Assembly: GCA_008632985.1 (NCBI GenBank) | Contig: QPGO01000292.1 | Location: 1 to 64,000, forward strand | Direction: 5' to 3' | DNA length: 64,000 nucleotides | Source: Psammoneis japonica | Taxonomy: Eukaryota | In this document: positions 5,546 through 38,990 of the stretch, one piece after another | How the letters are laid out: every line of letters starts with the position of its first letter | How positions within the stretch are numbered: position 1 is the stretch's first letter | Notes under the pieces: model-generated | Told to the model about the DNA's origin: nothing | Database searches by the model: none | Seen by the model: only the letters and a program-made list of their open reading frames with translations | Position numbers and translations under genes: made by a program

Positions 5546-6485
5546 TTTTTCAGAAAATAAAACAGGGAGAACGAAAGTCTCCACTCAGTTTATGACATGA
5601 AGTAGCTTCCTGAAAGTGGCTAATCGTGCTGTAGTGGTATAAGGAAAACTGAAAGGCAGGTTAGCGCACAAGCAAAGACGAAGCTCTTTCTCGCTCGGCT
5701 GTCATCGCGAGTGTCAGTGTTTTGTTCTGCTCGCGGCTCGCGATCGCGGTGGTCGGTTGCGGTTCAACAGGTCGGCAGAAATCAATGTCATTCATCATTC
5801 ACGAAGCATTTTTAATGATACTTTTGTTCATTTATATCTCCGAACATAATATATTTTAAAGGTCACGTGGCTTCATCGCGTGTGACGCGACAGGAGTGAT
5901 CGAGGGCGTCCGCGCGCGGCGCGCGGCTGCATTCAAGAAAACTTTCGGCCGCGTTGCGCGTTGCCCTGTTGACCTGTTGCCACATTGCGCTGCACATTGT
6001 TGTTGTTGTTGTTGCGATCGAAGAATCACCACCGTCCTCTCCTAACGCAAACGAACAAACAGAATCAATGAGCCCAAGCAACCTTTGCGCCTTTTTAAAC
6101 CAAACGACTGTGTCCAATGAAAGTGCCGGAGAACAGCAAGAGAGCGAGACGTGCAAGAGCCTGTCTGTTGCTTGGATTTGCCAGAGAATTTGTGCAATCA
6201 ATTCAAGCATTTGTTCGATCGCATCATCGTCTTGCTCAAAGTCAGCATCCATGAACGGGAAGACATCCAGCAAGCAGCAGGAGAGCAGATCTCCGATCTC
6301 ATCACACAAGAAGTTGCCAAGGAACCGATTCTCGCAAAGAGCTGTTTACAAGGGGAGAAAAAAGATTGATTTTTGGAATTCGCAAAAATGCAAATGGATG
6401 GTCTTTGCTGACCGCGGTTTGCAAGAGCACTCATCGGAATCCCATTCTTCATGAGGCCGTCACACTTCTGATCAATGACGTGTTC

Positions 6486-6761
6486 TGACAGGATTTGAAC
6501 AGGATTTGGGTGCGCGCGAAGTGTCGCGCGCTGTTTAGTTTACCGCGCACAGTTTTGTGTGCTTTAGTTCCGCGCGTTCACGCGCGATGTAGTTTGCTTT
6601 CGAGCCACAAGGCTCACAAGGATGACAACAGCAGCCCGATTGTGCCGACTTGCACGTCTTTCGGCTCCTGCAACGGTCTCTGAGCGGAGACTCATCTGCC
6701 ATTTAGACAGCAGTGAGGAGTCATTGTTTGAATTCTTGCCATTTGCCTTCAATTTCTGTCA
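6486..6761 (+). repeat. 5' LTR of Copia element 1
   Basis: Direct repeat of 12075-12350 with TG...CA ends. Confidence 0.95.
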
Positions 6762-7702
6762 GATTGACAGTCTTGCTCATTGTCAACCCATTGAGCAACC
6801 GCCATCGTTGTTGTTGATTCACCAACGACGCCATTTCAATCCTGCGTGGACCTCCGCATGTGTTCTACATGCGTCGGCAAGTCTGCGCGCATTCAATGCC
6901 AGGGCATCGGCAGGAAGTTAACGTCACCGTCAAGTCTCCTTACCGCTGGACATCTGGATTGATCACACTGCCTTTGATCGCTGAAGACACATGTTCAATG
7001 GTCATGTCCAAGTCCATCCTTGATCAACATCCCTTGACACACCCATTCCTCGGTTAACGGTCAAGAACCCCACATGTTCAAGGATCTCAGTCGCTGAAGA
7101 CATGTGTGTGTGTGCATGTCTTCACGGCCAAGAACCTTTACCCACTCTTCGGACTGCGGTTTTGCCACCACTCTACAAGCACACCGAGTCCATTGCACCT
7201 GATCTGCCCCGGACTGCTGGTGCTCTGCAGTTCTGCCAGGTCCCACGAGGACGACTGTGAGAGCAAGCAGCCGTGATTGCAGCCTACGTTGGGGGCGAGG
7301 GTGCTTTCCTGCGTTTGTTCGTTCGTCCACAGCACCCAACGCCTGTGTCAACTGGCCAGCCTGATCGGGAAATCCAACCGACATAAAATGAGAACGGTTC
7401 AGGGGTCTTGTCCACCTCTAGTCAGCTTACCTGCAGGGGTTTACAACCCGCTACTCCGCTCGTAAGCAACCCAAAGCGCCACTGGCTGCGGGTTCAGACG
7501 TGCCGGCACAACTCTGCGGACCGGACAGGAAGTTTAGCACTTGACAACGAACGGGATAGCAAAGCCCGGCGACTTCTGATTTTAAGACAGTTCAAGATTT
7601 CAAGTCAAGTCCACCTCAAGTCAAGTCTGTTCTCACCCAAGTTTCGAGTCTACCTTCGCTTCCCAACCAGAATTGATTGTCCTGACACCACTTTTGTCTG
7701 CC

Positions 7703-10700
7703 ATGGTTCTCACTCGTCAGCAACAAACCGATGGTTTCGAGCACGTTGTTGGAACCGTGCTTGCCCAAGGTGCTGGGAGTCCTCTTCGTTTGGCTTTGGC
7801 CCAAGACGGCACGGACTCGCATCAGGAACTGTTCACGTTCATGCCGTCCCAAATCGACTCGCTTGAGTACGACAACGGCACTGATGTGATCCCTTTGCCC
7901 CGTGGTCATAAGAACATGTTAGCAGCACTAGTTAGTCTGTACATTGTCAAAGCACACAAAGGTCTTGACGTTGCCAACGACTCCTCTTTGTTCACGCATG
8001 ACGAGTTCCTTGCCCACCGCCTCAGCCCCGACTGCATGTCTTCTGTGTCCATTGGCAGCTCACCCCTTGCACCTCCGCATGTCACCAACCCGACCAAGGC
8101 ACGCGACCCGGTGCGGGACTTCAAGCGAGGCATCAAGCGTGATCCCACCGCTTTCACGGCTCTCAAATCCGACAAGCAGTGGCACACTTGGCACACCTCA
8201 CTTGTGGCACAAGCCCGTGCCCAAGACGTCGAGTGCATTCTAGACTCGTCGTACAAACCGACCAGCCCCGAAGACAAACTGCTCTTTGCTGAACAGCAAA
8301 AGTGCATGTTCGCCGTCTTCGAACGCATCCTTCTCACCGACAAGGGCAAGGCTCTCATTCGCGAAAATGTGGGGTCTTCTGACGCACAGACCATCCACCG
8401 CGCCTTGTCTGAGTGCGCGCTTGCCTCCACCCGTGCATCTGTCGAGTCCTCCACCCTGCTCACGTACCTCACCACCGCACGTCTTGGTGATGGCACTTGG
8501 AAAGGTCCGACCCACGGGTTCATCCTTCATTGGCAAGATCAGTTGCGCAAGTGCGAGGCACTCATCCCGGCCAGTGACCACTTCTCTGAAGGACAGAAGC
8601 GCGTCATGCTCGAGAATGCCGTGCACCCTGTCGAGGAACTCCGTGCTGTCAAGAACCAAGCTGATCAGCATCGTGCGCAGAGTGGCAAGAGCCTCACACA
8701 CGATCAATGCTGTGGCTTGCTCCTCTCCGCGGCAGCTCAGCACGACAGCACGTTTCAACCCAAGACGACACCTCGAGCTCCCCGACGCGCCACACACGCA
8801 CACGACGTCTGCTCCGAGGAACCGTCTGACGATGTGTTCTACGACATTGACAGCGACATTGACGTCCTTCAGGCCAATGCTGCCCACACCCGCGGTCCCA
8901 GCCTCACCGGTGACCAATGGAGACGTCTCCCTCCCGACCACCAACGGATCTGGGATTCGTTGCCCGATTCCTCCAAGGCGATCATCCTTGAGCATTCTCG
9001 TCCGCCTCCCCGCAACCCGCGAGCCAGTGACTGCCATGAGTCTGTTGCGGCCAACCTTCACGACCAACGCCTTGGGAGTGACGGTGATGTCAACTTGTCC
9101 AACACGACTCCTGCTGACTCTGGTGACTCCGCTCCAAATGTGGGTGCCAATTTGGACAATCCCATCATGGCGCACCTCACCAAGTGCAAGTCACTGCCAC
9201 CCGGTGATCTGCAACGTCTGTTGTCTCCTAACCAAGCCCCCAATGCTAGTCGACCGGGGCCATCCGCCGCTTCCTCTGCCCCGCCAGCTTCTGCAGATGA
9301 CATGGAACTCAACGGCCGCACTTGCCGCCGCGTCAACAACCACAATGTCATTTGCTCTGCCTCTGCTCATCGCTCCACACGCACTGGCGCTCTAGTCGAT
9401 TGTGGGGCCAACGGCGGCATTGCTGGCGACGACGTTCGCATCATTGCACGCACCTCTCACCAAGTCGACGTTCAGGGCATTGACGATCATCAATTGGTGG
9501 ACATCCCTGTTGTCACCGCTGGTGCCGTCATTGAGACCCAGCGTGGTCCCGTCATCGCCATCCTCCATCAGTGCGCACACACGGGCAAGGGCAAGACCAT
9601 CCATTCCTGCGGCCAGCTCGAATGGTGCAAACAGGATGTCAACGATCGCTCTGTCAAGGTGCCCAACGGCTTGCAACGCACCGCCACTCCTGATGGCCAT
9701 GTCATCCCCATTGACATCAAGGCCGGCCTGCCTTGTGTTGCCATGCGACCTTACACTGACGCCGAATGGGACACCCTGCCCCCACCTGAACCCATCATCA
9801 AATCTTGCCATGACGACAACCCCATCGATTCTCCTGATGGGGAGATCAGGACACCCAAGATGCCAGTTTTCGATCCGCAAGACATCATTGGACGCACCTT
9901 CCTCATGCAGCCACAAGAGGACGGACAACGCCACAGAGCTCGCATCGTCAAGGCCGTCGAAGACCACGAATGGAAAGTGAACGGCAATCCCGAGCTCACT
10001 GAGTTCGTCTGCTCTGTCAACAATGACGAATGCGAGGAAGTCCTTGCCTGCAATGACATCATGAATCACATTGAGCAAGAAGACGAAGACACTGCTGTTT
10101 GGAAATTTCGACGCATCGTGTCACACGAAGGACCTCTGAAGCCTCACGACCCAACCTGGAAAGGCTCAAGCTACAACATCATGCTTGAATGGGAAAGTGG
10201 GGAGATCACGTCCGAGCCTCTTGCCATCATCGCCAAGGACGACCCCGTCACCTGTGCCATCTACGCACGAGAGAACGGACTCCTCGACACGGATGGCTGG
10301 AAGCGGTTCCGCACCATCGCGAGGCACCAAAAGAAGCTGTTTCGCATGGCCAACCAAGCCAAGCTTCGCTCCTTCCGCACTGCACCTCGCTGCAAGCACG
10401 GATGCGAAGTTCCCCGGAACTGCAAACACGCCATGTCACCAGACGAACGCAACGGCAACCGCAAGTGGGGAGACGCAACTAATCTCGAGATGGACCAACT
10501 CACTCCTCCTGCGGGACACAAGAAGATCCGAGTGCACCTGGTGTGCGACGTGAAACACGACGGTTGCCACAAGGCATGACTCGCAGCCGATGGGCACCTC
10601 ACGGACGTACCCATCGATGGTGTCTGCTCCGGAGCAGTCTCCCTCCGTGGCCTTCGGCTGATGATTTTCCTGGCCGAACTCAACGAGTTGGAGACATGGG

Positions 10701-12030
10701 CCACCGACATTGGCAATGCCCACCTTGAAGCCACCAACAAGGAGAAGCTTTACATTGTAGCCGGACCTGAATTTGGCAAACTCGAAGGACACATCCTTGT
10801 CATCCACAAGGCACTGTGTGGACTGCGCAGCTCCGGTCTCTGCTGGCACGAGCGCTTCGCCGACTGCCTGCGAGCTGAAGGCTTCTTCCCCTGCCGCGCC
10901 GAACCCGACATTTGGATGCGCAGGAACGGCGACCACTGTGAACACATTGCCGTTTATGTGGATGACCTCGCCATTGCCATGAAGGACCCTCAATCTTTCG
11001 TCGACACTCTCACGGAAAAGCACAAGTTCAAGCTCAAGGGTGCGGGACCCATTGAGTTCCATCTGGGTTGCGACTTTTCCCGGGATCCCGACGGAACCTT
11101 GTGCCTGTCTCCGCGCAAGTACATCGAGCGCATGGTCGACAGCTGTGCCCGACTGTTTGGGGAGAAACCCACCACCAACGCCCTGTCACCTCTAGAGAAG
11201 GGTGACCACCCCGAACTGGACACTTCCGAACTGCTGGGACCCGATGGCATTCACAAGTTCCAGTCTCTTGTTGGTTCACTCCAATGGGCAGTGTCCCTTG
11301 GTCGAATTGACATTGCCACGGCCGTCATGTCACTCTCTACCTTCCGAGCTGCACCCCGTCAAGGCCACTTGGATTGTGCCAAATGCGTCTGTGGGTGCCT
11401 CTCCAAGATGCGACACGGTGCTCTCCGCGTTCGCACGGAAGAGCCCGACCATTCGGATCTCCCTGCTCCGGCCTGTGAATGGATGCATTCCGTGTGTGGC
11501 GAAGCAGAAGAGATGATCCCGAAGGACGCTCCACCGCCCCTTGGCAAGTTCGTCACTGCCACCCACTGCGTCGATGCAAACTTGTGCCATTGCATGCTCA
11601 CCGGACGCTCTGTCATGGGAATGCTCCACTTCCTCAACAAATTCCCGGCTGATTGGTTCTCTGAGAAGCAAGCCACCGTGGAGACTGCGACCCACGGGTC
11701 TGAATTTGTTGCCGCAAGGACTTGTGTTGAGCAGATCATCGACCTGCGCATCACCCTGTGCTGCCTTGGCGTCCCGATCCGCAATGTCAGTTGCATGTTC
11801 GGTGACAACAAGTCGGTTGTAGACAGTGCCACCATCCCGCACTCCAAGTTGCACAAGCGACACACCGCACTGTCGTTCCACCGTGTGCGCGAGGCAATTG
11901 CCTCTGGTTGCCTTGAGCTCCACTTCATCGAAGGCTCCCGCAACCCTGCTGACATTCTCAGCAAGCATTGGGGTTGCTCCCAAATCTGGGACCTTCTCCG
12001 CCCCCTCATGTTCTGGAACTTCATTCCATC
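7703..12030 (+). pseudogene. Copia gag-pol remnant (gag, protease, RT, RNase H); integrase core missing
   Basis: ORFs 7673-10579 and 10661-12181 lie in the same frame, separated by TGA at 10577-10579 (HKARL -> HKA*L). No HHCC or DDE motifs between the protease (~9.4 kb) and the region after ~9.8 kb. Confidence 0.85.
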
Positions 12031-12074
12031 CGAAGTCGAATCTGTTTCTGTGACTCCTCAAGCAAACTGGGGAG

Positions 12075-12350
12075 TGACAGGATTTGAACAGGATTTGGGT
12101 GCGCGCGAAGTGTCGCGCGCTGTTTGGTTTACCGCGCACAGTTTTGTGTGCTTTAGTTCCGCGCGTTCACGCGTGATGTAGTTTGCTTTTGAGCCACAAG
12201 GCTCACAAGGATGATAACAGCAGCCCGATCATGCCGACTTGCACGTCTTTCGGCTCCTGCAACGGTCTCTGAGCGGAGACTCATCTGCCATTTAGACAGC
12301 AGCAAGGAGTTGTTGTTTGAATTCTTGCCATTTGCCTTCAATTTCTGTCA
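12075..12350 (+). repeat. 3' LTR of Copia element 1
   Basis: Direct repeat of 6486-6761, followed by the target-site duplication TGTTC. Confidence 0.95.
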
Positions 12351-13779
12351 TGTTCCAGCTCCAGGTGGGACCTCGCAGTGCTGAACTGTGACATCAATGG
12401 TTTTTTGGATCGCGCCGCATGTCACGCACACAGATGGCTACGTGTGATGTTCTACAAAATTGTTTCATGCTTCCCATTTTGCGAAGCCAAAGGCTTTCCA
12501 TTTTCAACATTTGTGACAATGAAAGTGTGCTGGGTGTGTTCTTTGATGTCTGTAGAATGTGCCCATGCAAACCATTGTTCATGTGCCACAAGTGTGAAGG
12601 AGGAGATACGTTCGTAAAATTGCCTCTTTTTCTGTTGGCAATCATTTGTGTTTCAATTGATCAACAAATTTAACATGGAGCTTGCACGCAGAAGTCTGTG
12701 GGCCCAATGTCACACGGAGTCCCACCTGGGATTGGAACCCGTCCAATGTCAACCCGCATGCCTTGCTGTGGAAATGGGGCTGCAAATGCTTCCCTCTGGC
12801 ATGCATCACCTCGGAACATTGTGCTTTGATGCCCTGGATTGTGCGGAGCCATGCGTGGATTTTTGAGCACCCGACCATCATTCAAGACCACCACAAAATG
12901 CTTGAATGTGCCCTCATTCGATGCCATTGTGATGGAGATTGTGAGGCATCCGTTGTTCGTGGAGTCTTGGAGTTTCTGCCTGCAGCTCTAGACAAATGTT
13001 TCCCAGGCAGGTTGCAAGGCATTGTTTCAGGATGGGGAGAGTGCAACTTGGGCTTGGTGGAATGGATGGTTGAGAAGCATCCTGAATGCCTGAAACATCG
13101 TGACATGTGGGGACGGACTGCTTTGCACTGTGCGTGTGAGTCTCTTTCACCTGTTCACTGTGAAATGGATTTTGATCCATCATCAATGGAGAACAGGGCA
13201 AGCATTTGCCGCTTTGTCATGCAAGAGCATCCCGAGGCCATCCGCATCAAGGCACGATGAGGGGGCGGACTGCCACTTCATTGCCTGGCCCGCCAATGTA
13301 ACAGGAGACTGGTCCATGGCTCGTGATTGACATGTTGAAAGCACATCCCAAAGCTGCACACGTCAAGGCGTGCAACAATTGTCCAAAGTTGTCAAGTGTG
13401 CCTTTTGTCCAAGTGATCGGGCCACTCATGCAACAGCAGTCTCAGCTGAAACAAGAGGAAGAATCCCTTGAAGTTGGTAGAAGGCTCTTCAGGGGCTTTT
13501 CTGAGTCTGATGCGGGGGCTGGTGTTGTCCCCAAGAAAACCAGCAAAGCATTCTCCATGTGGGCAACAACTCATGTGGCTGCATTTCAGGATCAACGTGC
13601 TGCCCTTGAGGTGGAGATTGCAGGCATTCAAGAAGCTTTTGAAGGAGATGATGAGGAAAGTGACTTGGAAGGTGGAAGCGATGAAGACTCCTGCGCAGAC
13701 TCTGAAAGTGATGATGAGAGTCTGGGAGCCCAGGCCGACGCTGATGAAGATGATTTGGGTGAGGCGGATTAGGAAGCAA

Positions 13780-16700
13780 GGCCATTCTGAGCAACTGGCC
13801 CTGCGTTTGATGCCCGAGGTGTGGAGGTTGGGGCTGCGTCACTGTGGAGATGCATGCAAAGGCATTGCTGTGGGCATTTGTCACAATCTTGTCTCTTCAC
13901 CTTGAGAAATTGATGAGGAGCAAACTGTTGCAAATCAAATTGAGGCACAAATCAACAGTGCATGTCAGCGCACCGGGCTGGGCGCATTGCATTAGAATGT
14001 CAGCAACCCGGTGGATTGCAGGGCCCCACTTTGCACATTGGACGATTTGATGACTTGCTCATTGCCTGTGCAATTGTGTCTGCATGGGCTTTTGTGTCTT
14101 GACCAAGCTTCCAGAGTGCAAGGCAGGATTCATCACCTTGCAGCCACTGCCAGTGCAACCTCAAGTGCGGCATCTTTCTGTCAGCCATGTGCAGCTGGGT
14201 TTCAGTTTTTTCTTGACAGCAGCCACAAAAAGTGATGGCACTTGCTTTTGGACACAACAATGATTGGCCGTGCTTGCCACATTTTTTTTTCACAGGAACA
14301 ATGTTGTGATGACAACCAGTGGTGATTTTTACAAATGACAATGCCAACAACACAACATGCAACCCAAGCAGCATGATCCAGCAGAGGTGTCAGAGGGCAG
14401 GTGCTTTGGAAATCAGCAAAAGTGTCAGCAGCAGGTTGCTCTGGAAAAGAAAGAGACAATCTTTTTCACCCAGATGAAACACTTGCTTCATTTGAACACT
14501 GCACAAGTTCAAGGTGCCACTGTGACAATTTGGAGATCTTTCTGGGATGAGCAAATTCTGCTGGACAAGAAGTTGTTGTCACTGCCAGAAATGTCCTCAT
14601 GGAGAGGACTTCCTGCCTCTGTGTCAGAGTTGGTGCATTTGGCAGGGTCACACACACACAATGATGAAAACATCAGACAAAAAAGCCTGCAGGCAGGTGC
14701 ATCTGTGGGGGCACAACTTGTTTCTCCACCTCTGATGACTCACAAGCTGTTGTCTCTGATGCTCTCTTCAGCTCTCTGACAAGATCAGTGGTTTGCTTGA
14801 TGCTTGGTGCACTGTCAAAAAACTTCCAGGCATCCTCTCCCAGATGGAGTCTGCTGGCATGTGGCATGTGGTCAAGAAGATCTTGAAGCAGATGGCAGAG
14901 CACCAGAGCAAGCAGCTGCAGCTGGTGTGTGAGTGTTTGCCAAAAACCCACCTTGATGCCTGTTTCTGTTTGTGCCAAGTGCGCCAGTGTGTTGTCAAAT
15001 CACAAAATCAGCACAAGCCAAGTGCTGGCACCACACTTCATTCCTGCACTGCACATTTCCTGAGTGCAACACCTTGCATCTTGTGCCTCCATTCCACAAA
15101 CATGCTGTGTTGAGCAGGATGTGCTGAGAATGAGTCACATGGGTGTTGGAGTCACTTTGGCCTTCTTGTGCACACTGGGATGCCAGCAATGAAAAGAAGA
15201 GACCTTTGTTGCAGCAGTGCTGTTGCTCTTCTTTCTGCAGCAAAGTTCAAACAAATGACCCAGATTTCATCTGAGTCAAAGTTCACCCTCAAGCCAATCT
15301 GCCAAATTTTCAAAGCTTCTGCTTTGTGAATGAGCCAAGTGTGCAATGCGCCACATGAGGGCACCTGGTTGTTCACTAAAAAGAGAGAAGACCATCAGGT
15401 TCTTGGAGAAATGAAAAGTCAGAAAAGCAAGAAGCATGGGTGGGGGCTGTTGGACAAAAAAATCACAACCACACACCCAGCTGCTCTCTCAAAACAAGCC
15501 CATTGCAGCGGGGCTGGGACTTCTTCAGAGTTGCATCATTCTCCATTTTATGCTGATCAGCTTCTCTCAGATTGCTGCAGCACAGGATGAAGAAGAAACA
15601 AACAGAGACTGGCACAACATGAACACAAACACAGCATGCCACAACCTTCCAAAACAATTTTGCACACTCACAAAAAACTCACACCTCATGGCCAAGACAG
15701 CTCTGCCCAAAGAAATGCTGATGTTGCTGTGCTCTTGTCAAAAAAACAAACTTGTGAACAAAACATCTTTTCTTGAGTGTCAGACCAGTGCACCACTTCT
15801 TGTGTCAACCAGCAAAGTTTCAGTGTTGTTCTCCTTCTTTCTTCTTCAAGTTGACCATTGTTCTGGATCAAGTCCCACCCGCACTCAACACACTCTTCAA
15901 AAGAATGAAAACTTGGCAAGCACAAGGCACCAGAAAAACACAACCATGGCAAAGGAAACAGCCACTGAACAAGTGCACTTTTGGATGAAACTGATCTGGA
16001 CTGTGTTGGCACTTTTTGCTGTTTCAACCATTTTCTTTTTTCACAGGTTGTGGCTTGCAGCCCATTGCAACAAAACCCAGCTTCACATTTGTGGAGTGGC
16101 CAGAGCTCAATCAGGATGTTAAAAAAGCATTTTCAATTGCTGACTCCCAGACAGTGTGTTGGTGGTGTGTGGCGTGCAAGAGGAAATGGGAAAACTGCTG
16201 CAATTTTGAGTGCTTTGAAGGGATGGTGCAGAATGATCTCTGTGGGGCTTTCTAAAAAGGGGCACAATGAAGTGCAACATGAGTTTGTCAAAAAGTTGTC
16301 AGGCAGGATCAGTTTTCATTCTTTGCTGCAAAGCCAGATGGAGATTTTGACACAGATTTGTTTGCCGCCTGTCCTGTGTGACCCAGCCATTGTTGTGTCA
16401 ATGAAAGTCCACACTGCTGCAGAAGAGGTTTTGGAGGGATTGCTTGTGATGTGAAAAATTCTGCCGTGCAATTGGCTCAAACAAGATGAGGGTCAACAAG
16501 CAAGGCTTGTTGTGGATCTGTCCAGTTTGTGAGCAGCCACTTCCTCTGGGACAGACCTCACCAAAGTGTGTGTTGCTGAAGCTCACATTGGACCATTCTC
16601 ACAACCAGAGGAAACACTTTGCACTAACCAAAGAATGCCAAAAAGTTTCAAAGATCTTTGATGTTGATTAGAATCCACCACAAAATTGATTGTTGAGAAA

Positions 16701-17640
16701 TTTGTCCCCAGTGTGCTCACACTGCAGAAGGGCAGAAGGTGTGCTGCACTCTTCTTCAAGACAGGAGGCCTCTTTTTTGATGCTGATGTTGTGAAGGAGA
16801 TCATTGAGGAGATTCCAGGCAAACAGAAAAAAACATTGCTTGGGATGAATGAGACTTCATTCTTTTCTGTGACTTTGGTCAAGACATCTTCCACGACTTT
16901 TTCCACAGTTGTGGCTGGTTCTCCAACTCACATGCAGCTGCACATTGTGGAGCAATCAAGCAAGTTGGAGCCATGATGCTGCTGCTTCTCACTGCATGGC
17001 ACAAAGGAGCTGGCAGGCTTGTTCCTTTTCAGCCCTGCACAAAGCACACAAAAACTCCATGTGCTGGCCCAACCACCAAAGCATTGTCACAGCAGGCACA
17101 ACTTGCATGTGTGGTGCTTTGCCATCTCCAACACCACAAACACCAAACAAGACAACAACAGCATCTCAACCACTTCTTTTGTTCTCTGCAAAGTCTCTGC
17201 CATTTGGCATGTTGGTGTTGTCATTTGTGTGAGTTGCTCTTGCTCTTGCATTTTTTTTTGTGTGGCACAGGTGGCACTGGCATGTTGGCAGAGTGACTCC
17301 AAGACCTCCCTGTGATGTTCTTGGCTGTGCTCAGCTGAGAATGTTGATGCTTGTTGTGCTCAGCAGATTTGTTTTGCTCAACCAAGAATGGCTTGTTCAG
17401 CAACATGCATTTTTGTCCCCGGCTGCTCACCTGTGCATTTCTGATCAGCAAAGAATGATGTCACCTCTTGTTGTGTGCTCACTCAGTGGTTTCTTGTCAA
17501 TGCAACAGAATGAAGAAACTCCAAGCACACACTCCAAAAACGTGAAAAGCAAGGCCCCACCACAGCCAAAAACTCTGCGTGATTTCAGCAGCACTGAGCT
17601 GCTTGTGTCAAAACCCGATGACAGCAGTGCCGTGCATGAT
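13780..17640. other. Heavily degenerated DNA nearly devoid of both TpA and CpG (TG/CA-rich); original element not identifiable
   Basis: By eye, only a handful of TA and few CG dinucleotides in about 3.9 kb. ORFs are Cys/His/Gln-rich and nearly Tyr-free. Confidence 0.75.
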
Positions 17641-17659
17641 GAGCGGCCTTCGTTGCTGA

Positions 17660-17995
17660 CAGTGTGGTGACGAAACCACCTGGGGCCACGTGGGTCATGG
17701 AGAAGCTGGCAGCGGGATTGCCAGTTGCACAGTTGGAAAGCCTGGCATCACCAAGGGCGGTCAGACAGTGATCACATCCGATGTGCACCGGATGCGACCT
17801 CGGGCTTTTGTGTTCACCGACACAAATTGCACCCATGGACAGATGGATGGGGTGCCATGGGCCCGATGGAAATTTGCATGATCTTGGAACAAGCAGGCGA
17901 AATGGTGGATTACGGCAGTGTGGGTGACGACGCCGGACCCAAGAAGACATTCCCAGGAAAGCCGCACGTCACATGTGACAACCACTTTGACGGTT
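17660..17995 (+). mobile_element. piggyBac-like transposase fragment (frameshifted)
   Basis: CGDETTWG (D at 17669), KPGITKGGQ, RPRAF/HRHKLH and KPHVTCDNHF (17977-17988). These resemble the piggyBac DE and T.DNYF catalytic motifs, with Y->H. Confidence 0.6.
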
Positions 17996-19246
17996 TTTGG
18001 GCAACCTTGCTGAGTGGAGTCATGAGTGTTTTGGTGAGTGCATCCGCCGTCAAGTTTCTTCCCATTGCGGCCGAATGGGTTCCAGGCTTTACTCTTGGCA
18101 TGGGTCTTGTGGGCGTTGGATTCTCGCGGATTCTTCTTTCTCTCCAGGGGCCAACAAACAGAGCGCAGATTGTGGTGCGCGGCACGTGGTACGTGCGCAC
18201 GCAGGATCAGATTTTTTTTTTCTTGCGGGCATGATGGCGGCGCGGTTGACCCACAGGCTCAAGTTCAAGAAATGGGCTGGTGTGAAGGGCCGCCACGTGA
18301 ATCCCATTTTGCGAACATGGGTTGGCCTGCGCGTCTTTTTGCTGTCTTTTCTACGTGTGTTTTAGCAATGAAATTACGTGCAATCTGAGAATTTTGTTTC
18401 TCCCTCCGACACGGAAGCGAGAGCCTGTTTCTTTGCCATGACGCGACTGTGCCGGCATCTGAGTCGTCTGAAGAATGTGATGATTTCAAAGAACATGATG
18501 TCACTGTGAATGGCAACTCTAGATGCAATGTCACCAATTGCAATGGAAGTTTAAAAAATCAATGCCGCTGCAATCGCAATTGCCACAAACAGATTGTTTC
18601 ATTCTGCAGCGGCATCCACCTTGTCGCAGGGCTTCACGGTAGATTGTGCAATGTGAGCATCAACAGATTCAATGAGGGAATCACACAAACCACAAGCCAT
18701 CAAGTCCATCCGGAATGGTTCAATTTGAATGTGGGCTTGAGATTCGGGAGTGTCGGGATCAGATTCAAGTTTCACTGAACGGCAGCACCTTTCATTTTTG
18801 TTGGACTTTCTGCGAAATTCAACCAAGCCCTTGGATCCAGATCCCTTCTGGATTGAATCCGGTGCATCACTTTCGGCTGTTCCGACTGGAATGCCGCTAA
18901 CCTGGAGCACACGGTGAACGTCTGATGCGTTTGGCCAATTCCCATCAAAGCTTGCCAAGACGTGTGCTGTCAAAAGAATGAGAGCATTGTCAACTCTCTT
19001 TTTAACAGGACAACAACTTTTTTCCTTTCCTGCATTGCTGCTCTTTTCTTGCTGGATGCCATGCCCACAGTGCAAGAACGACGTTGACGGTTGATGATGT
19101 TGGTGTGAGAAAAATGGAAATTCAAATGACAAGTGCTGAATCACGCAGAGATGTGCCGTACGTGCCTTGTCATCGCTCGCAAGATCGCTCAACGCTTGGT
19201 ACGTGGTGCGGCCATGGCGAAAAAGAGACGGCATTTTCACAACAAA

Positions 19247-19340
19247 GGAAGGTGGGGCATCGGTCGCCGACGGCATGTTCGAGCCTTTAGAGCATCGAAA
19301 GGGACCAATGCAATTGTCGGCGACCGATGCCCCACCTTCC
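19247..19340. repeat. Perfect 25-bp inverted repeat with a 44-bp spacer
   Basis: GGAAGGTGGGGCATCGGTCGCCGAC (19247-19271) and its exact reverse complement (19316-19340). Confidence 0.9.
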
Positions 19341-19685
19341 ATTGTGCTCAAAAATCGCGACGGCGTGACGGCGCCATTTTGCCGTGCTTTGTCGCGGTGA
19401 AAAAGGCATGAGAGGTCACGAAAATCCACAATCTGACGGACAGATGACGGACCAAATGTTCGCCAAAAAGGTCACAAATCGGCACATATAAAATTATCTT
19501 AAATGATGGTTGTCAAACATTTGTCCGTTGAGGCGACATGCCAGCCCATTTGTTGAAGTTGAGCCTGTGGTTGACCGGACACACAGAATTGGAAGAGAAG
19601 ACCGCTAAGAGAGTAGAAACACACACACAAGAAACAAGGCTTCACATCACAGTGTATTTTGCTGGGGTCGCAGCGATACGGCAGC

Positions 19686-20660
19686 ATGTTGCTCAAGTTG
19701 ACAACTTTCCTGCTGACCCTTCTCTGCTGCTCAGTGGCGCCGGTGGAAGCAGCTGGCAACAATGATTGCCAGAACATTGACCAGAAATGTCCAGGTTGCT
19801 TTGGCTGCGCACTCTGGTGTCATGAAGTTGCCCATAAAGGCGGCACAGGCTATGAGAAGAAGTTGGTCTTGGTTGAACGAGCCACGGACTACTGCCTTGC
19901 GTCCAATTTTCCGAATGATGGCTGTGCCACAGGCCATTTTCCATTCTTCAGTTGTGAGAACGTCCAGCCCATTTCGGCAACATTCCATTCGTTCATTCCC
20001 GGTGAACTTGAGGTCTTGCGCTCTCCTGAGAGCATCTTCGAGGCCATTGACTCATTGAATGGCAACTTTGACGCGACGTTTGGCAGGCAAGAAAATGTCG
20101 CATCCTTGCAGGAACGTGTCGCCCTGCGCAACTTCACCGAACAAGCCTTCGAGAATGCACTCCTCGATGAAACGATGAGTCCAACCGTCTCGAACAAGCT
20201 CCACGAAGATTTTAGGCTCGATGTAAGTGCTTCCAAGTTGGCAGAGTTGACATCTGCAGAGAGCATCCGTCGCATGTATGATGCTTTCCAGGCATGTGAA
20301 GCTGTCCCAATTGCCAGCATCATTCTCCGTCGCAATTGCATGGAAGGCAACACACACATTGAGTGTCATCATGATGGAAGCATGGCCGTCATGCATGTCT
20401 GGCTGAACGACGATGGTTTAGAAGGAGGCAACCTGATTTGCCTCAATGGTGACGGATCCACCACCGTCGACACAGAGCCTGGCTCTGCTGTGTTTCACGG
20501 ATGGGACCTTGTCCATGGGGTGAACAGTTTCAACGGCACTGGGTGCATCCCAATGTTTGGAGGACAGAAGAACTGGCAGCAAGACATCTTCGCTGACATT
20601 CTTAACTTGGATTCGTCGGAAGACGCAAATGCCGACGGTTCTGTCAATGCTGAACTGTGA
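19686..20660 (+). CDS. Signal-peptide protein with a C-terminal 2OG-Fe(II) oxygenase-like domain; TpA-depleted, possibly inactivated
   Basis: Hydrophobic N-terminus MLLKLTTFLLTLLCCSVAPVEA. HxD (CHHDG), LND...EGGNL and distal HGV motifs. The usual GTRY-like motif reads GTGC. Confidence 0.6.
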   Translation: MLLKLTTFLLTLLCCSVAPVEAAGNNDCQNIDQKCPGCFGCALWCHEVAHKGGTGYEKKLVLVERATDYCLASNFPNDGCATGHFPFFSCENVQPISATFHSFIPGELEVLRSPESIFEAIDSLNGNFDATFGRQENVASLQERVALRNFTEQAFENALLDETMSPTVSNKLHEDFRLDVSASKLAELTSAESIRRMYDAFQACEAVPIASIILRRNCMEGNTHIECHHDGSMAVMHVWLNDDGLEGGNLICLNGDGSTTVDTEPGSAVFHGWDLVHGVNSFNGTGCIPMFGGQKNWQQDIFADILNLDSSEDANADGSVNAEL

Positions 20661-21013
20661 TTTTGATGGAACACCATGCGATGCACCAATTGGGACACCC
20701 CACTTTTTTGTTCAGCTTCATCATTTTCAGTTCTTCATTTCCTTGGCATTGTGTTTAGTCCAATCACATCTTACATCGACGCCCTGCGGCATCCGTCCAA
20801 CGTCTTGGACGTTTCAATGCGCTTTTCACAGATTTTAATGCGACACAATGAACTGTCCCGCACATTGGTCCCTTCCTTTGGAGTGCCTTGCTTTTGGTGG
20901 TTGCAAGTCGGAATTGGGATTGAGGAGGCCAGCGGGTCACTTTCAATCATCTTTTGCTGCAGTGAGGGACCAGGGACCGCGATTCTGGTGCTGGCTTGAG
21001 TGCATTCAGACAG

Positions 21014-22002
21014 TTGGATAAATGCTGTGTGATGATGCTGTGCACAACACATGCCCAAATGTGTGTGCGGAGAAGGGACTCAACAATTGGCCGAGTGGCA
21101 ATTTCTTTGCCTCTTGAGTTGTTGAGAACCTCCCGCACTCGTTGGGCAGGGTGCAGCATTCTGAGTGGTTATGAGTCTTTGCGCTTCCTGAGGTCGCTGG
21201 TTCGAGTCGGCCTCAAATCCAAGCCTCCTTTTCTTTCTCGGCCTGCCCCTTTTCTGCCCCATCCGGGGTGGGCGGTTGGGCTTCGAACCCACTCCTCCCT
21301 TGGCATTGGCCGGATGCGCCACATGGCGCTAACCCATCCGCCTGCCTGACAGAGGGAGTGCATGGTCAAATTCGTAAGTCCGCCGTGCGGATGCGCCACA
21401 TGGCGACAACCCATCCTGCGACGAGAGGGAGAGTTGGATAAATGCTGTGTGATGATGCTGTGCACAACACATGCCTAAATGTGTGTGCGGAGAAGGGACT
21501 CAACAATTAGCCGAGTGGTAATTTCTTTGCCTCTTGGGTTGTTGAGAACCTCCCGCACTCGTTAGGTAGTGTACAGTGTTCTGAGTGGTTATGAGTCTTT
21601 ACGCTTCCTGAGGTCGCTGGTTCGAGTCGGCCTCAAATCCAAGCCTCCTTTTCTTTCTCGGCCTGCCCCTTTTCTACCCCATCCGGGGTGGGCGGTTGGG
21701 CTTTGAACCCACTCCTCCCTTGGTGTTGGCCGGATGCGCCACATGGCGCTAACCCATCCGCCTGCCTGACAGAGGGAGTGCATGGTCAAATTCGTAAGTC
21801 TGCCGTGCGGATGCGCCACATGGCGACAACCCATCCTGCGACGAGAGGGAGAGTTGGATAAATGCTGTGTGATGATGCTGTGCACAACACATGCCTAAAT
21901 GTGTGTGCGGAGAAGGGACTCAACAATTGGCCGAGTGGCAATTTCTTTGCCTCTTGGGTTGTTGAGAACCTCCCGCACTCGTCAGGCAGTGCACAGCATT
22001 CT
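21014..22002 (+). mobile_element. Tandem TRIM-like array (LTR-internal-LTR-internal-LTR, 420-bp period)
   Basis: 149-bp repeats at 21014-21162, 21434-21582 and 21854-22002. The internal 271 bp starts with GGTTATGAG (tRNA-Met-type primer site) and ends with the purine tract GAGAGGGAGAG. GACAG flanks both ends (21009-21013, 22003-22007). Confidence 0.8.
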
Positions 22003-22007
22003 GACAG

Positions 22008-25000
22008 TGTCAGATGCGGGGTCGCTGTTCGAATGTCACAGGATCAAAGGCACGCAAGTGCTCACCGAGTTTGTCGCGTGCCACCCGTCACACGCACTGA
22101 GCACTCGTCTCAAGGCCTGCTGGGAGAGCCCAGAAGTAGCTGAACGGTCTGATGCGATGGACGAATCAGCCTTCTTTGACACCCACGAGGAACTGGAACC
22201 TCTCGACGACCAGAAGCATTTCTTTGACGCTCTTGAGGACTTCATCCCGGATTTCTTCCGGTTTGACGAGCTCTGTCTGCCGCATCATGTCGTGGACACT
22301 GCCCATTTTCAAGATCCTGTGGAGCTGTTGGAGGAAGCAAGTGTTGGACCAGTCGTCCACAACACCTCCACCATCCAACTGCTCACCGGACAATCACAAG
22401 CCGACCTCCTTGCATCCGATCCGCAGGCACTCATCGGTCTGTCGGACGAGGCTCTCACGGTCGTCATGGATGCTGGTGCCACGCCAGCTGTTGCCCCCGA
22501 CAAAGATGATTTTACGGGGCCTGTGACTGCTCCCAAGAAACCCTTGCAGATCAATGGGATTGCCAACGGTCTTGCCATCCAGGGTGCCGGTCCGGTTGCG
22601 TGGGTGTTCACAATGCCGAGTGGGGCTACCACCCAACTGAACACCATGGCATGCCACGTCCCTGGAGCCCGTCAGCGCCTGCTGTCGCCTCAACGCCTCT
22701 TCAACGAAGAGAAGGGGGCACGTGGGAAGTGTGAGGGCGATGAAACCACTTTCCGTTTACACATTGACGGGATGGGCAAGTTGGCCGTGCCATGTCATCC
22801 ATCAAGCCACTTGCCTGTTGCGTCGATGACCAAGGGCGTGTCTGCCGCTCCTCAAGTGAACCTTCAGATCCTCAACGAGGAGAATCAAAACCTCACGGCA
22901 GGCCAAAAGCTTCTTCTCGAAATGCACGCCCGTTTTGGCCATTTGAACTTTGGTCGCGTCCAAGCACTTCTCCGCGCAGTTCCGTTCCTTTCGAACCATT
23001 TCAAGTCCGCAGCGAAGTGTGACCACCCAAGATGCGAGGCACGCAAATGTGCTAAAGGTCATGGACGCTCTCTTGGATCTACTCACAAGTCGACAGTCCC
23101 TGAACGCGACGGGGCCCTTCGAGCTGACCATCTTCGACCGGGTCAGGCTGTCAGCGTTGATCATTTTGAGTCGCGCCTTTTGGGCCGCACCTTCGACTCT
23201 TATGGCAAAGCCACGTCCAAGCAATTCAAGGGCGGTTGCATCTTTGTCGACCACGCCTCTGGCTATGTCCAGGTCGAGCACCAACTGGGTTTCTCCGCTG
23301 TTGAGACGATGCGCGCGAAGCAAGCGTTTGAGAAACATGCTTTGGACCACAGGGTCATCGTCCAAGATTTTCTTGCCGATGGTGGCGCTTTCAAGGCCAA
23401 CGCTTTTGTACAACACACACGAGAACATGAACAACGTCTCCGTTTTTGTGGAACCAATGCCCATCATCAGAACGGCGTCGCAGAGCGGGGTGTCCGCAGC
23501 ATCTCCAACATGGCGAGAGCGATGTTGCTTCATGCATCAATCCACTGGAAGGGGGGAATTGACAGCTCCCTGTGGCCCATGGCAGTTTCTTGTGCCACGC
23601 ACATCTACAATGTCACCCCAAATTCCAAAGGACATTGCCCAGCGGACATTTTCACTGGTTCGACAGTGCCAAGACATCGGTTGCGCGACATTCACACATG
23701 GGGATGTCCAGCGTACGTGCTTGACCCGACCCTCGCTTCCGGGAAGAAGCTCCCGCGTTGGGAGCCTCGCACTCGTCGCGCTTTGTTCGTGGGACTCAGT
23801 GCCATCCATTCCAGCGAGGTTCCTTTGGTCCTCAATCTTCAAACTGGAAGTGTTGCACCTCAGTGTCATGTGGTCTTTGACGATCTCTTTACTGCCGCAC
23901 CATCAATTGAGAGGGAGACGGATCCACCTGATCACTGGGAACACTTGTGCCTCAACCAATCGACATGCATCCCTCTGGAGAAGGATCAGGCAGTTCATTC
24001 ACACGATGAGTGGCTCACCCCTCCAGAGCGTCAACGTAAAGAACGAGAACTAGCCAGAGCAACACGCATTCGCGGGCATTTTGAGCCTGCTCCATCGATT
24101 GCTGTGCCGGATTCACCCACTTCTCGCGACGACGTCACCGATCGAGTCGCACCTGCGACTCAGCAGCCAACGCCACCAGTCCCACCTGCGACTCAAACTC
24201 CTACAGACTCTACGGACTCTACGCCAATTCAGCCACCTGAACCTCAAGATGGTAACGGACTTCCGCCACCCGAAGCACCAACGGAACCAACAGCTCCTCC
24301 CCCAGTCGAGACACCTCCCATGACGAATCCAGAGGGAGTGCCAGGGCTGCGACGGTCTTCACGGTCAACCAAGGGACAGTTCAACTCTGCCAAGTTTGTA
24401 GATGAGGTCTGCTTCAGCTCCGTCGAGGAAATGCCGCTGCCGATCAGACACGAGGCTCAACTGGCGTATCTGGCGACTCTCGAGACGGATTTGGACAGTG
24501 GTGCCATCAATGTCGGCGATCCACGAGCCCACGCAGCTAGCAAGAAAACCAAGGACCCTGACACGCCTTCGTTGCACAATGCTCTGAAAGGTCCGGACGC
24601 CGACGAATGGATTGAGGCGATGAAAATTGAAGTCAACGCACTCATGCATCGTCGAGCCTGGAAAGCAGTCGAGCGTCAGCCGCACATGAATGTACTTCCA
24701 GGCACATGGGCACTAAAGCTCAAGAGACTCCCAGATGGAACCCCTCTCAAGCACAAGGCCCGATGCTGCGTCCGCGGTGATTTGCAGAAAGAAGGAGTCG
24801 ACCACTTCGAAACCCACGCGCCGGTTGTGCAATGGTCCAGTGTCCGACTCATGCTCACTGCGGCATTAAAGGAGGGATGGACTGCACGACAGGTGGACTG
24901 TGCCACAGCCTTTTGCCAAGCTGATGTCGCCGAGGAAGTCCATGTAACACCGCCGAAGGGATTTGCACCAAGGTCGGGACTCAACATGGTTCTCAAACTT

Positions 25001-26250
25001 TTGAAAGGACCACACGGCCTAAAACAGTCTCCCAAGGGCTTCTACGAGAAGTTGCGAGCTGGTTTAACCGAGCGCGGATGGGTGCCTTCAGCCACAGATC
25101 CCTGTTTGTATTTCAAAGAGGGCATGATGTGTGTGGTGCACGTCGACGACACCGTTTTTGCTGGAGCTTCAGCTGAAGCTCTAGAAGCCGAAATTTGCAA
25201 GTTAGGAGTCTCCGACGACGAACATCGCCACGCACTTGAACTTAGAGACGAAGGAGAAGTCGGTGACTTTCTCGGCATCAAGATCGAAAAGCTCTCCGAG
25301 GGTCGATTTCTACTCACTCAACCCGGTCTAATTGACAAGGTCCTACGTGCCGCACAGATGCAGGATTGCAATGGAGCATCTACTCCAGCTCTGCCTGCGG
25401 CCATTGGTGCTGACACGGACGGGCTACCTTTTGATGAACCCTGCGATTATCGCTCAGTTGTTGGAATGTTGATGCACTTGGCAGCGAACAGCCGGCCAGA
25501 CATTGCACATGCCACACATCAAGTGGCTCGATTCTCGTTTGCGCCCCGAGCGTCCCACGCTGCTGCAGTGAAGCGGATGCTCCGATGCCTCAAAGCAACT
25601 GCTGCTGAAGGTCTCATTCTCAAGCCTGCGCAAGATCATCGAGTTGATTGTTGCGTCGATTCTGACTTTGCGGGGTCATTTGGTGTGGAAGATGGTCAAG
25701 ACCCAGTTTCTGTCAAGTCCAGGACTGGATGCCTTGTCTACTGCGCCGGCTGCCCGCTGATCTGGGTGTCCAAGCTGCAGACTCTTGTGGCATTGTCGAC
25801 TGTGGAAGCGGAACATGTCGCACTTTCTCAAGCCATGCGCGATCTCATCCCCATTCGTGAAGTTCTCAAGGAGCTCAACCACCACGCATTCGGAAAGTCT
25901 GACCGCCAAAACCCCATCACGACCCACTCCAAGGCTTTTGAGCTCGCAACCCAAGGCACCGATGACTCGCCTGTAGAGCAGAATGTCCCACCTACGTCCG
26001 TTGTGTACGAAGATAACTCCGCGTGCCTCAAGTTCGCACGTGTGCCCAAGTTGTCTCCGCGAACCAAACACATCGGTGTCCCGCACCACTGGTTTGGGAC
26101 TAAAGTCGAACAATTGGAGATCGACATCCAACCTATCAGCACTCTAGAGCAACTAGCCGATCAGTTCACGAAGGGACTACGGACCGATGCGTTCCGTACG
26201 GCTAGAAAGGCTCTTATGGGCTGGTAAGCTCTCTCGGTTGAGAGGGAGAG
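22008..26250 (+). mobile_element. Second Ty1/Copia (CoDi-like) retrotransposon: pol (protease, integrase, RT, RNase H); gag and 5' LTR not found
   Basis: Open frame to 26227 with VMDAGAT (protease), HARFGH (zinc finger), VSVDHF/LADGG/NGVAER (integrase), VHVDDT (RT) and VDSDFAG/EDN/LADQFTK (RNase H). Purine tract GAGAGGGAGAG at 26240-26250; a putative 3' LTR follows. Confidence 0.9.
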
Positions 26251-37419: not shown

Positions 37420-38990
37420 GACGAACTAGCCGCTTTCGACGAGACAAAGCGTCAATGGCATTCAAGTATCCCCAGTTTTCATGAGCTCATAATCGACTGG
37501 AGAGGGGTACCAAAACTTCCTCATACCCGTCACTGTCGTCGAGGCGAAGCTAACTATTGTATGTGCTTGTTTCAAGAACAAAAACAATAATGGACAGTCG
37601 CCAGGGCATGAACGAATATCAGTGGCGTATTTAAGAACCAACAAAGAAAAGCTACAAAGTTGTTGTCTAGTTTAAACCTACAAGTTACTAAAGAGAAAGG
37701 AAATATTGTTGTGCCTACTACCTAAAAAGCCGTGAACTGGAAGATTGTTAAGTAGGGGTCTTTTGCCCCGGGGTTTTGGTTGAGAGTTTTTTTTTCCGTT
37801 CTGTGGGCCTGAGCCAGGGCAGCTGTGCCCGAGGAGGGGGATGCCGTACTACTAAGCTCGCCTTTTACACCACTTAGCAGGGTCTTATACCCTTTCTCAC
37901 CTCAGATGCTATTCACTCCTTTTCTTAGTTTGGCCTCTTTTCAATTTTTTCGCTCAATAATACCACACGGTATAGACTTTGGTGGATAACAAGTGTCACT
38001 AGCCGATCCACCCCTGTCCTGCGGGAAGGCGTATCCACAGTAATACTGACAGAGTCCCGGTTCTAGTGCCTTGTTTCCTTTTTAATGTCTCAGAACGCTC
38101 TCGTCACCAAGGACTGTTTTGTACTGGAGGAAGAACCCGGTCCACATCATACGCAATCACAAAAATGAACGCAACTACACCCAAGCCGAATCCAGCGTAA
38201 TCCAACCATTCACCACAATCATCCGTCGTCATGAAATTCCAATAGTAAGTATTGAAGGAAAGAACAGCATCATGGACACTGAGACGCTCCTTCTCAACAT
38301 ACGAATGAAAACAATCAATCACACGGATGATGTGTGGTGCTCCACAATCGGGGTGTCAAACCATCGACAAGAAACCTCAATCTCATGTCGTGGAGAATCT
38401 GAGCATCGAATATGGACTCTAAACAAACGCCACGCAGAGTCCAAACACGAGATACAGTTCCTCTACGACACGAGACTGAGAACACTACTCCTTCGAGTCG
38501 ACGGCGATCATGGTAGCGGCAGGCATCACGCAGGCGTTGTCTGACTTGAGTATAGAAAAGTCCATGGTTGAGAAAGCATACAATACAAACCGCGGCCTTC
38601 GTTCTTACCCCAAAAACAACCCTGACAATTCTCTGTTTCGATGAATTGTGACCAATGAGTGATGTTCCGATCAGCCCATCACGCTCCTCGGCATACCAGG
38701 AATGCGTAGATTCTACACGAAATTCCGAAACACGACTCATTTAACGATTGTTAGGATCAGGTTTTGCGAGTGCAATGAAGGTGTTGGCTCAACTGATAAG
38801 GTTTTCAAACGGTCATTTTTCAGCTACCCTTCTCTTCCCTTGTACCGTCGTCAACAACCGCCGTCACGGTTTCTCACGGTCTCCACGGTGCTCTTGCGGC
38901 GCACAGCGTGGGCCGGCTAATAGACTGTTGTCGGAGGGAAGTTTCGCAAGTTGAAGTTCGCATGCGATCTTTCGCGCGCGTTTATTATTT
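37420..38990. repeat. Copy 1 of a ~1.5-kb direct duplication
   Basis: Matches ~41920-43520. Near-identical at 37750-38720, with more diverged flanks. Includes a 72-aa minus-strand ORF at 38104-38322. Confidence 0.9.

Follow-up and report, generated by a model that had tools for sequence, protein, structure and literature searches.

In ascomycetes, repeat-induced point mutation (RIP) changes C to T, and in doing so makes TpA, lowers GC content and creates stop codons. For Microbotryum, the accessible part of one report applies divergence between long terminal repeats (LTRs) and an index of RIP-like mutation at TCG as separate measures (PMC10502011). The closest system described is that of Bigelowiella natans, for which the available sections of a preprint (Mettrop et al., bioRxiv 10.64898/2026.01.13.699255) report mutation-accumulation lines in which the rate was raised 1000-fold within two viral regions integrated in the genome. 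The mutations there are almost only A>G and T>C, all at TpA and giving TpG or CpA by strand, and clusters in the B. natans genome that are poor in TpA and rich in CpA and TpG form the long-term trace (10.64898/2026.01.13.699255, same sections). Its authors proposed a defence, with an ADAT2-like adenine deaminase as the candidate enzyme (10.64898/2026.01.13.699255, same sections). Here we describe a 64,000-nucleotide stretch of the diatom Psammoneis japonica (positions 1 to 64,000 of the forward strand of contig QPGO01000292.1, GenBank assembly GCA_008632985.1; hereafter the window). At 6486–12350 it holds a dead Ty1/copia-type LTR retrotransposon whose two LTRs differ at seven places, and we consider it probable that these differences reflect A:T>G:C mutation directed at TpA on both strands after insertion, together with slower CpG decay.

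A repeat search recovered a single direct repeat pair of 276 nt in the window (6486–6761 and 12075–12350, 96% identical, 5589 nt apart). The ends TGACAG...CTGTCA are present in both repeats and TGTTC lies directly outside both, which marks one insertion with its target-site duplication:

6481..6485, + strand: target-site duplication TGTTC, 5′ copy; the same 5 bases stand directly outside both LTRs
6486..6761, + strand: 5′ LTR, 276 bp, TGACAG...CTGTCA (repeat search, alignment)
12075..12350, + strand: 3′ LTR, 276 bp, TGACAG...CTGTCA (repeat search, alignment)
12351..12355, + strand: target-site duplication TGTTC, 3′ copy (alignment)

Alignment and a substitution classifier gave seven differing places comprising 10 bases, and neither a transversion nor an indel column among them. 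This reproduces exactly the list in an earlier note on this DNA, which had counted one TA/TG, one CA/TA, three TG-against-CA and two CG/TG sites without transversions or indels. Numbered within the LTR, with window coordinates in brackets, the places are:

LTR position 51–52: TA in the 5′ LTR (6537 A), TG in the 3′ LTR (12126 G)
LTR position 100: CG in the 5′ LTR (6585 C), TG in the 3′ LTR (12174 T)
LTR position 116: CG in the 5′ LTR (6601 C), TG in the 3′ LTR (12190 T)
LTR position 141: CA in the 5′ LTR (6626 C), TA in the 3′ LTR (12215 T)
LTR position 156–157: TG in the 5′ LTR (6641–6642), CA in the 3′ LTR (12230–12231)
LTR position 229–230: TG in the 5′ LTR (6714–6715), CA in the 3′ LTR (12303–12304)
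LTR position 237–238: CA in the 5′ LTR (6722–6723), TG in the 3′ LTR (12311–12312)

TA is scarce in both repeats (5 versus 15.6 expected in the 5′ LTR, 5 versus 15.9 in the 3′ LTR) and CG is not (21 versus 18.2 and 19 versus 17.7, or 1.07–1.15 of expectation). Reverse transcription makes the two LTRs of an element identical, so the differences between them arose after insertion.

In the reading that we favour, a copia-type element would have inserted, with two identical LTRs, into repeat DNA of a diatom chromosome. The dominant process would then turn TpA into TpG or CpA, that is, A:T into G:C at the A of TpA on either strand, and would be restricted to transposon and repeat DNA, sparing the neighbouring genes. 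It would cover five of the seven LTR places, two of them changed in one LTR only (TA/TG and TA/CA) and the other three changed in both LTRs on opposite strands, leaving TG in one and CA in the other. A slower process, ordinary CpG-to-TpG decay, would explain the element's only stop codon as well as both CG/TG places. In the LTR pair, changes are seen in 2/42 CpG copies versus at least 8/18 TA site copies, so that CpG decay appears about nine times slower per site. As for chemistry, an enzyme that deaminates adenine to hypoxanthine and favours a T on the 5′ side would be the most likely agent, in line with the proposal made for B. natans. UV damage at TpA and routes linked to 6mA are other conceivable origins.

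The coding part of the element gives the direction of change. Its internal 5.3 kb carries one + strand reading frame (7586–12181) with a single interruption, a TGA at 10577–10579, and is made up as follows:

7586..10576, + strand: first part of the gag-pol frame, 997 codons; 6/8 conserved Tyr lost (4 Cys, 1 His, 1 Phe)
10577..10579, + strand: the sole in-frame stop, TGA; Arg there in 101/105 homologues, read as CGA to TGA, a CpG-to-TpG change
10580..12178, + strand: second part of the frame, 533 codons, extending into the 3′ LTR; 13/15 conserved Tyr lost (9 Cys, 3 His, 1 Phe)
10616–11143, + strand: RVT_2 copia-type reverse transcriptase, residues 13–188 (Pfam)
12061..12074, + strand: purine-rich tract ending GGGGAG, likely the polypurine tract; it adjoins the 3′ LTR, with the same junction in other copies

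The RVT_2 match (PF07727) in the downstream part has E = 4.6e-20 and 72.7 bits versus a cut-off of 31.6. At E <= 0.001, 2707 homologues match the reverse transcriptase part, with 55–69% identity among the best 120; one is from the diatom Cylindrotheca fusiformis. The upstream 997 residues gave no Pfam family, even at E <= 10. Full-length homologues (1400–1700 residues, the named ones from Nitzschia and Epithemia) likewise carry only PF07727 in precomputed Pfam lists, so the absent integrase call probably reflects divergence of the clade from Pfam and not a feature of this copy.

Conserved columns were compared with 120 homologues for the reverse transcriptase part (286 columns) and with 65 for the gag side (151 columns). 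The reverse transcriptase part deviates at 37/286 columns, of which 19 are explained by a single TA>TG (14) or TA>CA (5) change; the others comprise 5 CG>TG, 1 other transition, 9 transversions and 3 with at least two changes. On the gag side the element deviates at 20/151 columns (TA-type 6, CG-type 4, other transition 1, transversions 3, multiple 6), and over both parts one TA>TG or TA>CA change suffices for 25/57 deviations. Tyrosine, conserved at 23 columns, is kept at only 4, the 19 losses being to Cys (13), His (4) and Phe (2). By comparison, every conserved His (13/13), Cys (2/2) and Trp (9/9) of the reverse transcriptase part is kept. Tyr makes up 0.6% of that part versus a homologue mean of 4.6%, and Cys 4.7% versus 1.2%. 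A strand bias there, Tyr>Cys 9 versus Tyr>His 3, is not significant (p = 0.15). The CpG-type coding changes are four Arg>Cys and one Arg>stop, and neither TAA nor TAG stops occur in the 1531-codon frame. Since the TA process cannot create a stop codon, this long open frame is no sign of function. Judged by this protein comparison, the direction of change in the coding part is from TA to TG or CA.

Among the 120 homologues, replacement of conserved Tyr by Cys or His is absent in 98 and single in 18. Three homologues, P0108, P0015 and P0061 (63–67% identical), have Cys or His at 10, 7 and 5 of 18 conserved Tyr columns, with no Arg loss, and may point to the TA-erasing signature in other records or species.

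A TG standing against a CA has two possible parents, TA by way of A>G and CG by way of C>T, with the change on either strand in both cases. If CpG decay were behind most of the differences, the three doublets would be ancestral CpGs deaminated on opposite strands, and the TA/TG and TA/CA differences would be unrelated random transitions. We regard this as very unlikely. TG and CA are indeed the two products of CpG deamination, and two plain CG/TG differences lie in the same LTR pair; this copy also has private CG>TG changes (5/40 listed variant rows of the comparison with other copies given below; four Arg>Cys changes and one Arg>stop). According to the available part of PMC2806351, CpG methylation is present on the LTR retrotransposons of Phaeodactylum. 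Yet 19 CpGs remain intact in both LTRs, with CG at the 1.07–1.15 of expectation given above, and the number of CG-derived doublets expected is 0.03 at the LTR CpG rate (P of at least three = 3e-6) or 0.75 at the internal rate (P = 0.04), as against 2.0–4.4 predicted under a TA parent. CpG decay also leaves unexplained the loss of TA from the element and the replacement of Tyr by Cys or His. A tandem array at 21012–22004 (420-bp unit, 2.4 copies), which lies within TA-poor DNA 9 kb downstream of the element, bears on the same question. At its columns 132–133 and 141–142 the three copies read TG, TA and CA, the third state being TA and not CG; at further sites one copy retains TA and the others have CA or TG. 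With TA as the hub, a three-state site takes two changes, and with CG as the hub three. TA is therefore the likely parent of the three LTR doublets.

TpA-directed mutation also appears to have a wider context. Surviving TAs with an ATA/TAT flank occupy 31/392 slots in TA-poor DNA versus 738/2650 in gene DNA (p = 2e-20). TATA accounts for just 148/738 of these gene slots, about a fifth, so changes at a neighbouring TA do not explain the avoidance. The TAs kept in both LTRs (positions 56, 80, 105 and 219) are all without a preceding A or a following T, and three of the five TA-type differing sites (LTR positions 141, 156 and 237) have the ATA/TAT-type flank. The LTR pair thus follows the bias found across the window, and this likewise favours TA as the doublets' parent. 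Among 25 polarised changes, a T follows the changed A in 13 and an A precedes the T in 12. Together this suggests an extended context preference, strongest at ATAT.

How far chance could produce the LTR pattern was gauged in two ways. The TA and CG classes cover 52% of all possible transitions in the LTR, so that the four single sites (0.52^4 = 0.07) are weak evidence when taken alone. If 10 places are drawn at random from 276, at least three adjacent doublets arise with P = 0.0026, and all three observed are TG against CA. Repeat pairs elsewhere in the window provide the second measure. In a duplication at 37.7/42.3 kb that lies in TA-normal DNA, 4/28 substitutions fall in the TA/CG classes, with 12 transversions and 10 indel columns, compared with 7/7 in the LTR pair (Fisher p = 4.9e-5). 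This duplication (37745–38700 and 42294–43253; about 960 bp, 97% identical, 4.55 kb apart) flanks hydrolase and amine oxidase genes; its spectrum is ordinary, and it served as a control. Two further pairs in TA-normal DNA have 4/14 (29961/30050) and 3/19 (692/899) substitutions in these classes. In TA-poor DNA the tandem array pair 21009/21429 has 12/15, including 2 TG/CA doublets, and the pair 60644/61041 has 6/6. Pooled, the TA-poor pairs give 25/28 and the TA-normal pairs 11/61 (p = 1.4e-10). The last TA-poor pair (60644–60850 and 61041–61247, 207 bp) lies on the margin of a TA-poor block with a high GC content (0.61), which extends past the window end, and its six differences are TA/CA (3), TA/TG (2) and CG/CA (1). 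None of the 8 open reading frames (ORFs) of that block, at 61–64 kb, has a Pfam match.

The same division is visible along the chromosome. Within the element TA stands at 0.18, TG at 1.47 and CA at 1.38 of expectation, with a GC content of 0.56 versus 0.49–0.50 around it; over the whole window TA is at 0.40 and GC at 0.50. In a 1-kb profile, blocks at 6–26, 44–49, 51–52 and 61–64 kb are TA-poor (TA 0.00–0.36, TG+CA 1.24–1.93), and in the remaining bins TA is mostly 0.4–0.8 of expectation. The flanks of the element belong to such DNA:

5986..6485, no strand: 5′ flank; as poor in TA as the element itself (TA 3 versus 35.3 expected), CG close to normal
12351..26200, no strand: 3′ flank, a continuous TA-poor block; TA 0.01–0.36 of expectation per kb

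The 5′ flank is repeated elsewhere in the genome (contigs with 21–24 other letters align on 6071–6477). On the 3′ side, 12351–13350 has 8 TAs versus 63 expected, and the block as a whole contains older TA- and CG-depleted DNA (13–18 kb), the tandem array and a copia frame at 21899–26224. All host-gene ORFs recognised by Pfam fall in TA-normal stretches, and the profile shows TA loss confined to a domain of transposon and repeat DNA, with host genes spared. The host genes in TA-normal DNA encode:

HMG-box protein, glycosyltransferase, UAA transporter, E2F, hydrolase, amine oxidase (40166–41737)
ribosomal proteins S3 and L26, RRM protein, class II aldolase, pyruvate kinase

The HMG-box protein (237–2078, + strand) has four HMG boxes, and the box-coding repeats 692–775 and 899–982 are 76% identical. 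For the amine oxidase, all hits with a species name among the 120 listed come from diatoms (Nitzschia, Seminavis, Cylindrotheca, Pseudo-nitzschia, Epithemia, Fragilaria, Attheya and Amphora; best hit 62% identical), as befits a diatom genome; a protein search with the aldolase returned clusters with bacterial labels only. Islands at 13000–18000, 44000–49000 and 51000–52000 have TA at 0.00–0.07, CG at 0.05–0.41 and TG+CA at 1.66–1.93 of expectation, with no Pfam match; they resemble repeat DNA of greater age, where CpG decay, though slow, has drawn level with the fast loss of TA.

The second rival holds that gene conversion or recombination with diverged copies patched one LTR, so that the differences would not be mutations of this locus. 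One ground for it is the abundance of the family. Contigs of sequencing run X1 were aligned at 80% likeness on 6000–12060, giving 12,250 contigs, and the element's summed depth exceeds that of the flank by a factor of hundreds to thousands, a figure that is not a copy number and that marks the family as highly repeated. Transitions make up 379/434 of the X1 variant places. The states of other copies are listed for 40 of 438 variant rows, none of them within the LTR; among these 40, other copies have TA where this one has CA in 13 rows and where it has TG in 11, almost all other copies have CG where this one has TG in 5, transversions make up 5 and the rest are other changes. Place 6992–6993, in the same list, is TG here and CA in 94% of depth. 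A degenerate 30-nt LTR pattern matched 0 loci in metagenome contigs and 0 in viral contigs, and no second copy of the family was found within the window. Patching by such copies is very unlikely, even though one of them shares 3′ LTR states: the two copies of the 5-bp target duplication match, which speaks against an exchange between elements, the seven places lie scattered across LTR positions 51–238 with identical sequence between them and would require several short tracts, and the donor variants would still need the TA and CG processes in chromosomal copies.

Editing before integration, by an ADAR-like enzyme on RNA or by a deaminase on one cDNA strand as reverse transcription proceeds, is highly improbable. 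Edited retroelements are known from animals, which speaks for it. So does the fit of TpA (UpA) to the 5′-neighbour preference of adenosine deaminases, as given in the available sections of the preprint (10.64898/2026.01.13.699255). RNA editing would, however, leave the LTRs identical, each part of an LTR being copied from one RNA region, and a cDNA edited on a single strand would show changes of one direction in each LTR. With TA as the parent, each LTR instead has TG as the outcome twice and CA twice. Both LTRs were thus hit on both strands, contrary to editing of RNA or of a single cDNA strand. The same signature is present in the TA-poor flanks and in repeats that are not retroelements. These four observations (differing LTRs, both-strand outcomes, flanks and other repeats) support a process that acts in chromosomal DNA, on both strands and after integration, and they bear out the claim of the earlier note that RNA editing and reverse transcriptase error are excluded and that the origin is chromosomal.

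A RIP-like C-to-T process running the other way (CpA/TpG to TpA, with TA derived) is scarcely credible: the TA/TG and TA/CA differences carry no direction by themselves and TA is a minority among copies at many listed sites, but TA is depleted (0.18) rather than enriched and GC is raised, conserved Tyr has become Cys or His with 0 reverse cases at the 13 conserved His and 2 Cys columns, the 1531-codon frame has no TAA or TAG stop, and the TG/CA doublets and three-state sites require TA as the hub.

Several observations weigh against TpA-directed mutation after insertion. The parent states at all seven LTR sites are inferred, and the one other copy mentioned above, a loose contig end, has the 3′ LTR states CA and TG at two doublet sites, not TA. 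Among copies, TA is in the minority at many of the listed sites (8–59% of depth); as such, the variant table shows recurrent variation at TA sites and not its direction, which is drawn from the protein comparison, from the three-state sites and from composition. Runs X1–X4, all of a single sample and study, are probably what the assembly itself was built from, and so are not independent. The LTRs also agree more often than independent changes at equal rates would predict (4 TA places never changed, an estimated 6 changed in both, 2 in one); this excess requires hot and cold sites, and the context preference would supply such sites. Finally, CpG changes amount to 2/42 in the LTRs versus 5/20 at internal Arg codons (p = 0.03), and with this lower LTR rate part of the internal damage could predate insertion.

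Beside the element, the copia frame at 21899–26224 (+ strand, 1442 codons) is a second and unrelated one, with RVT_2 and a retroviral SH3-like domain in TA-poor DNA; it contains 0.7% Tyr and 4.7% His, and no LTR pair was found for it. As many as 38 open frames of at least 80 codons overlap 6000–13000, in all six frames. Many long open frames are to be expected in TA-poor DNA from the loss of TAA and TAG stops, and they are not gene evidence.

If a TA-directed mutator is at work, it would be a genome defence with a chemistry opposite to that of RIP in major marine primary producers. It would also inflate ages drawn from LTR divergence. All differing bases lie in pyrimidine–purine steps (10/10), and the 132 positions outside such steps have 0 differences, with a 95% upper bound of 2.2% versus the raw divergence of 3.6%; the earlier prediction that LTR dating overestimates age here is thus upheld. 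Because TA loss removes TAA and TAG, long open frames in transposon DNA are uninformative about function, and TA-erased DNA will mislead gene finders and repeat classifiers. An LTR pair supplies timing that composition alone does not give, and its TG/CA doublets would mean that the same hot sites were changed repeatedly, on either strand. This pair stands out for its three double-changed sites and its clean split between fast TA and slow CpG loss.

A literature search found no report of the TpA>TpG/CpA signature for diatoms, the B. natans preprint being the sole description found; the sections of it that were available (10.64898/2026.01.13.699255) do not mention diatoms or retrotransposons. 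Two diatom papers, PMC9258296 (SPLASH) and PMC2806351 (Maumus 2009), are unrelated to the signature in their accessible parts, and that of the latter contains neither 'dinucleotide' nor 'RIP'. The search also found no paper stating that RIP inflates LTR ages.

Set beside known systems, the element shares with ascomycete RIP, and with the RIP-like TCG mutation of Microbotryum as described in the accessible part of PMC10502011, heavy context-specific transitions in chromosomal transposon copies that kill elements and distort divergence. RIP, however, is a C>T process by which TpA is gained, GC lowered and stops made, whereas here TpA is removed, GC is raised and stops are impossible. CpG decay of methylated transposons, by deamination of 5-methylcytosine, covers both CG/TG places, the Arg codons turned to Cys or stop and the CG-less older islands, but it cannot yield the TA/TG or TA/CA differences, nor the change of Tyr to Cys or His. 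With B. natans, as far as the available sections of the preprint describe it, the likeness is in kind: A:T>G:C at TpA on either strand, local to foreign chromosomal DNA, and TpA depletion with CpA and TpG enrichment. The same sections also set the two cases apart. The host there is a chlorarachniophyte and the targets are an integrated giant virus and a virophage, whereas here they are a diatom and a retrotransposon; TpA in the region derived from a nucleocytoplasmic large DNA virus is at about half the genome level, and here it falls to 0.00–0.2 of expectation; and mutation-accumulation lines were followed there, whereas here the evidence is comparative alone and CpG decay runs alongside. The kind of process is thus known from B. 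natans, and what is new here is the host lineage, a diatom, and the target class, a retrotransposon. More tentatively, and with more doubt than confidence, we suggest that diatoms may have a mutator of DNA adenine that is directed to chromatin or repeats, works on both strands of integrated transposons, removes TpA about ten times as fast per site as CpG decays and prefers ATA/TAT; it might be the same ancient defence as in B. natans and hence be widespread among stramenopiles, alveolates and Rhizaria (SAR), with LTR pairs as its natural clock.

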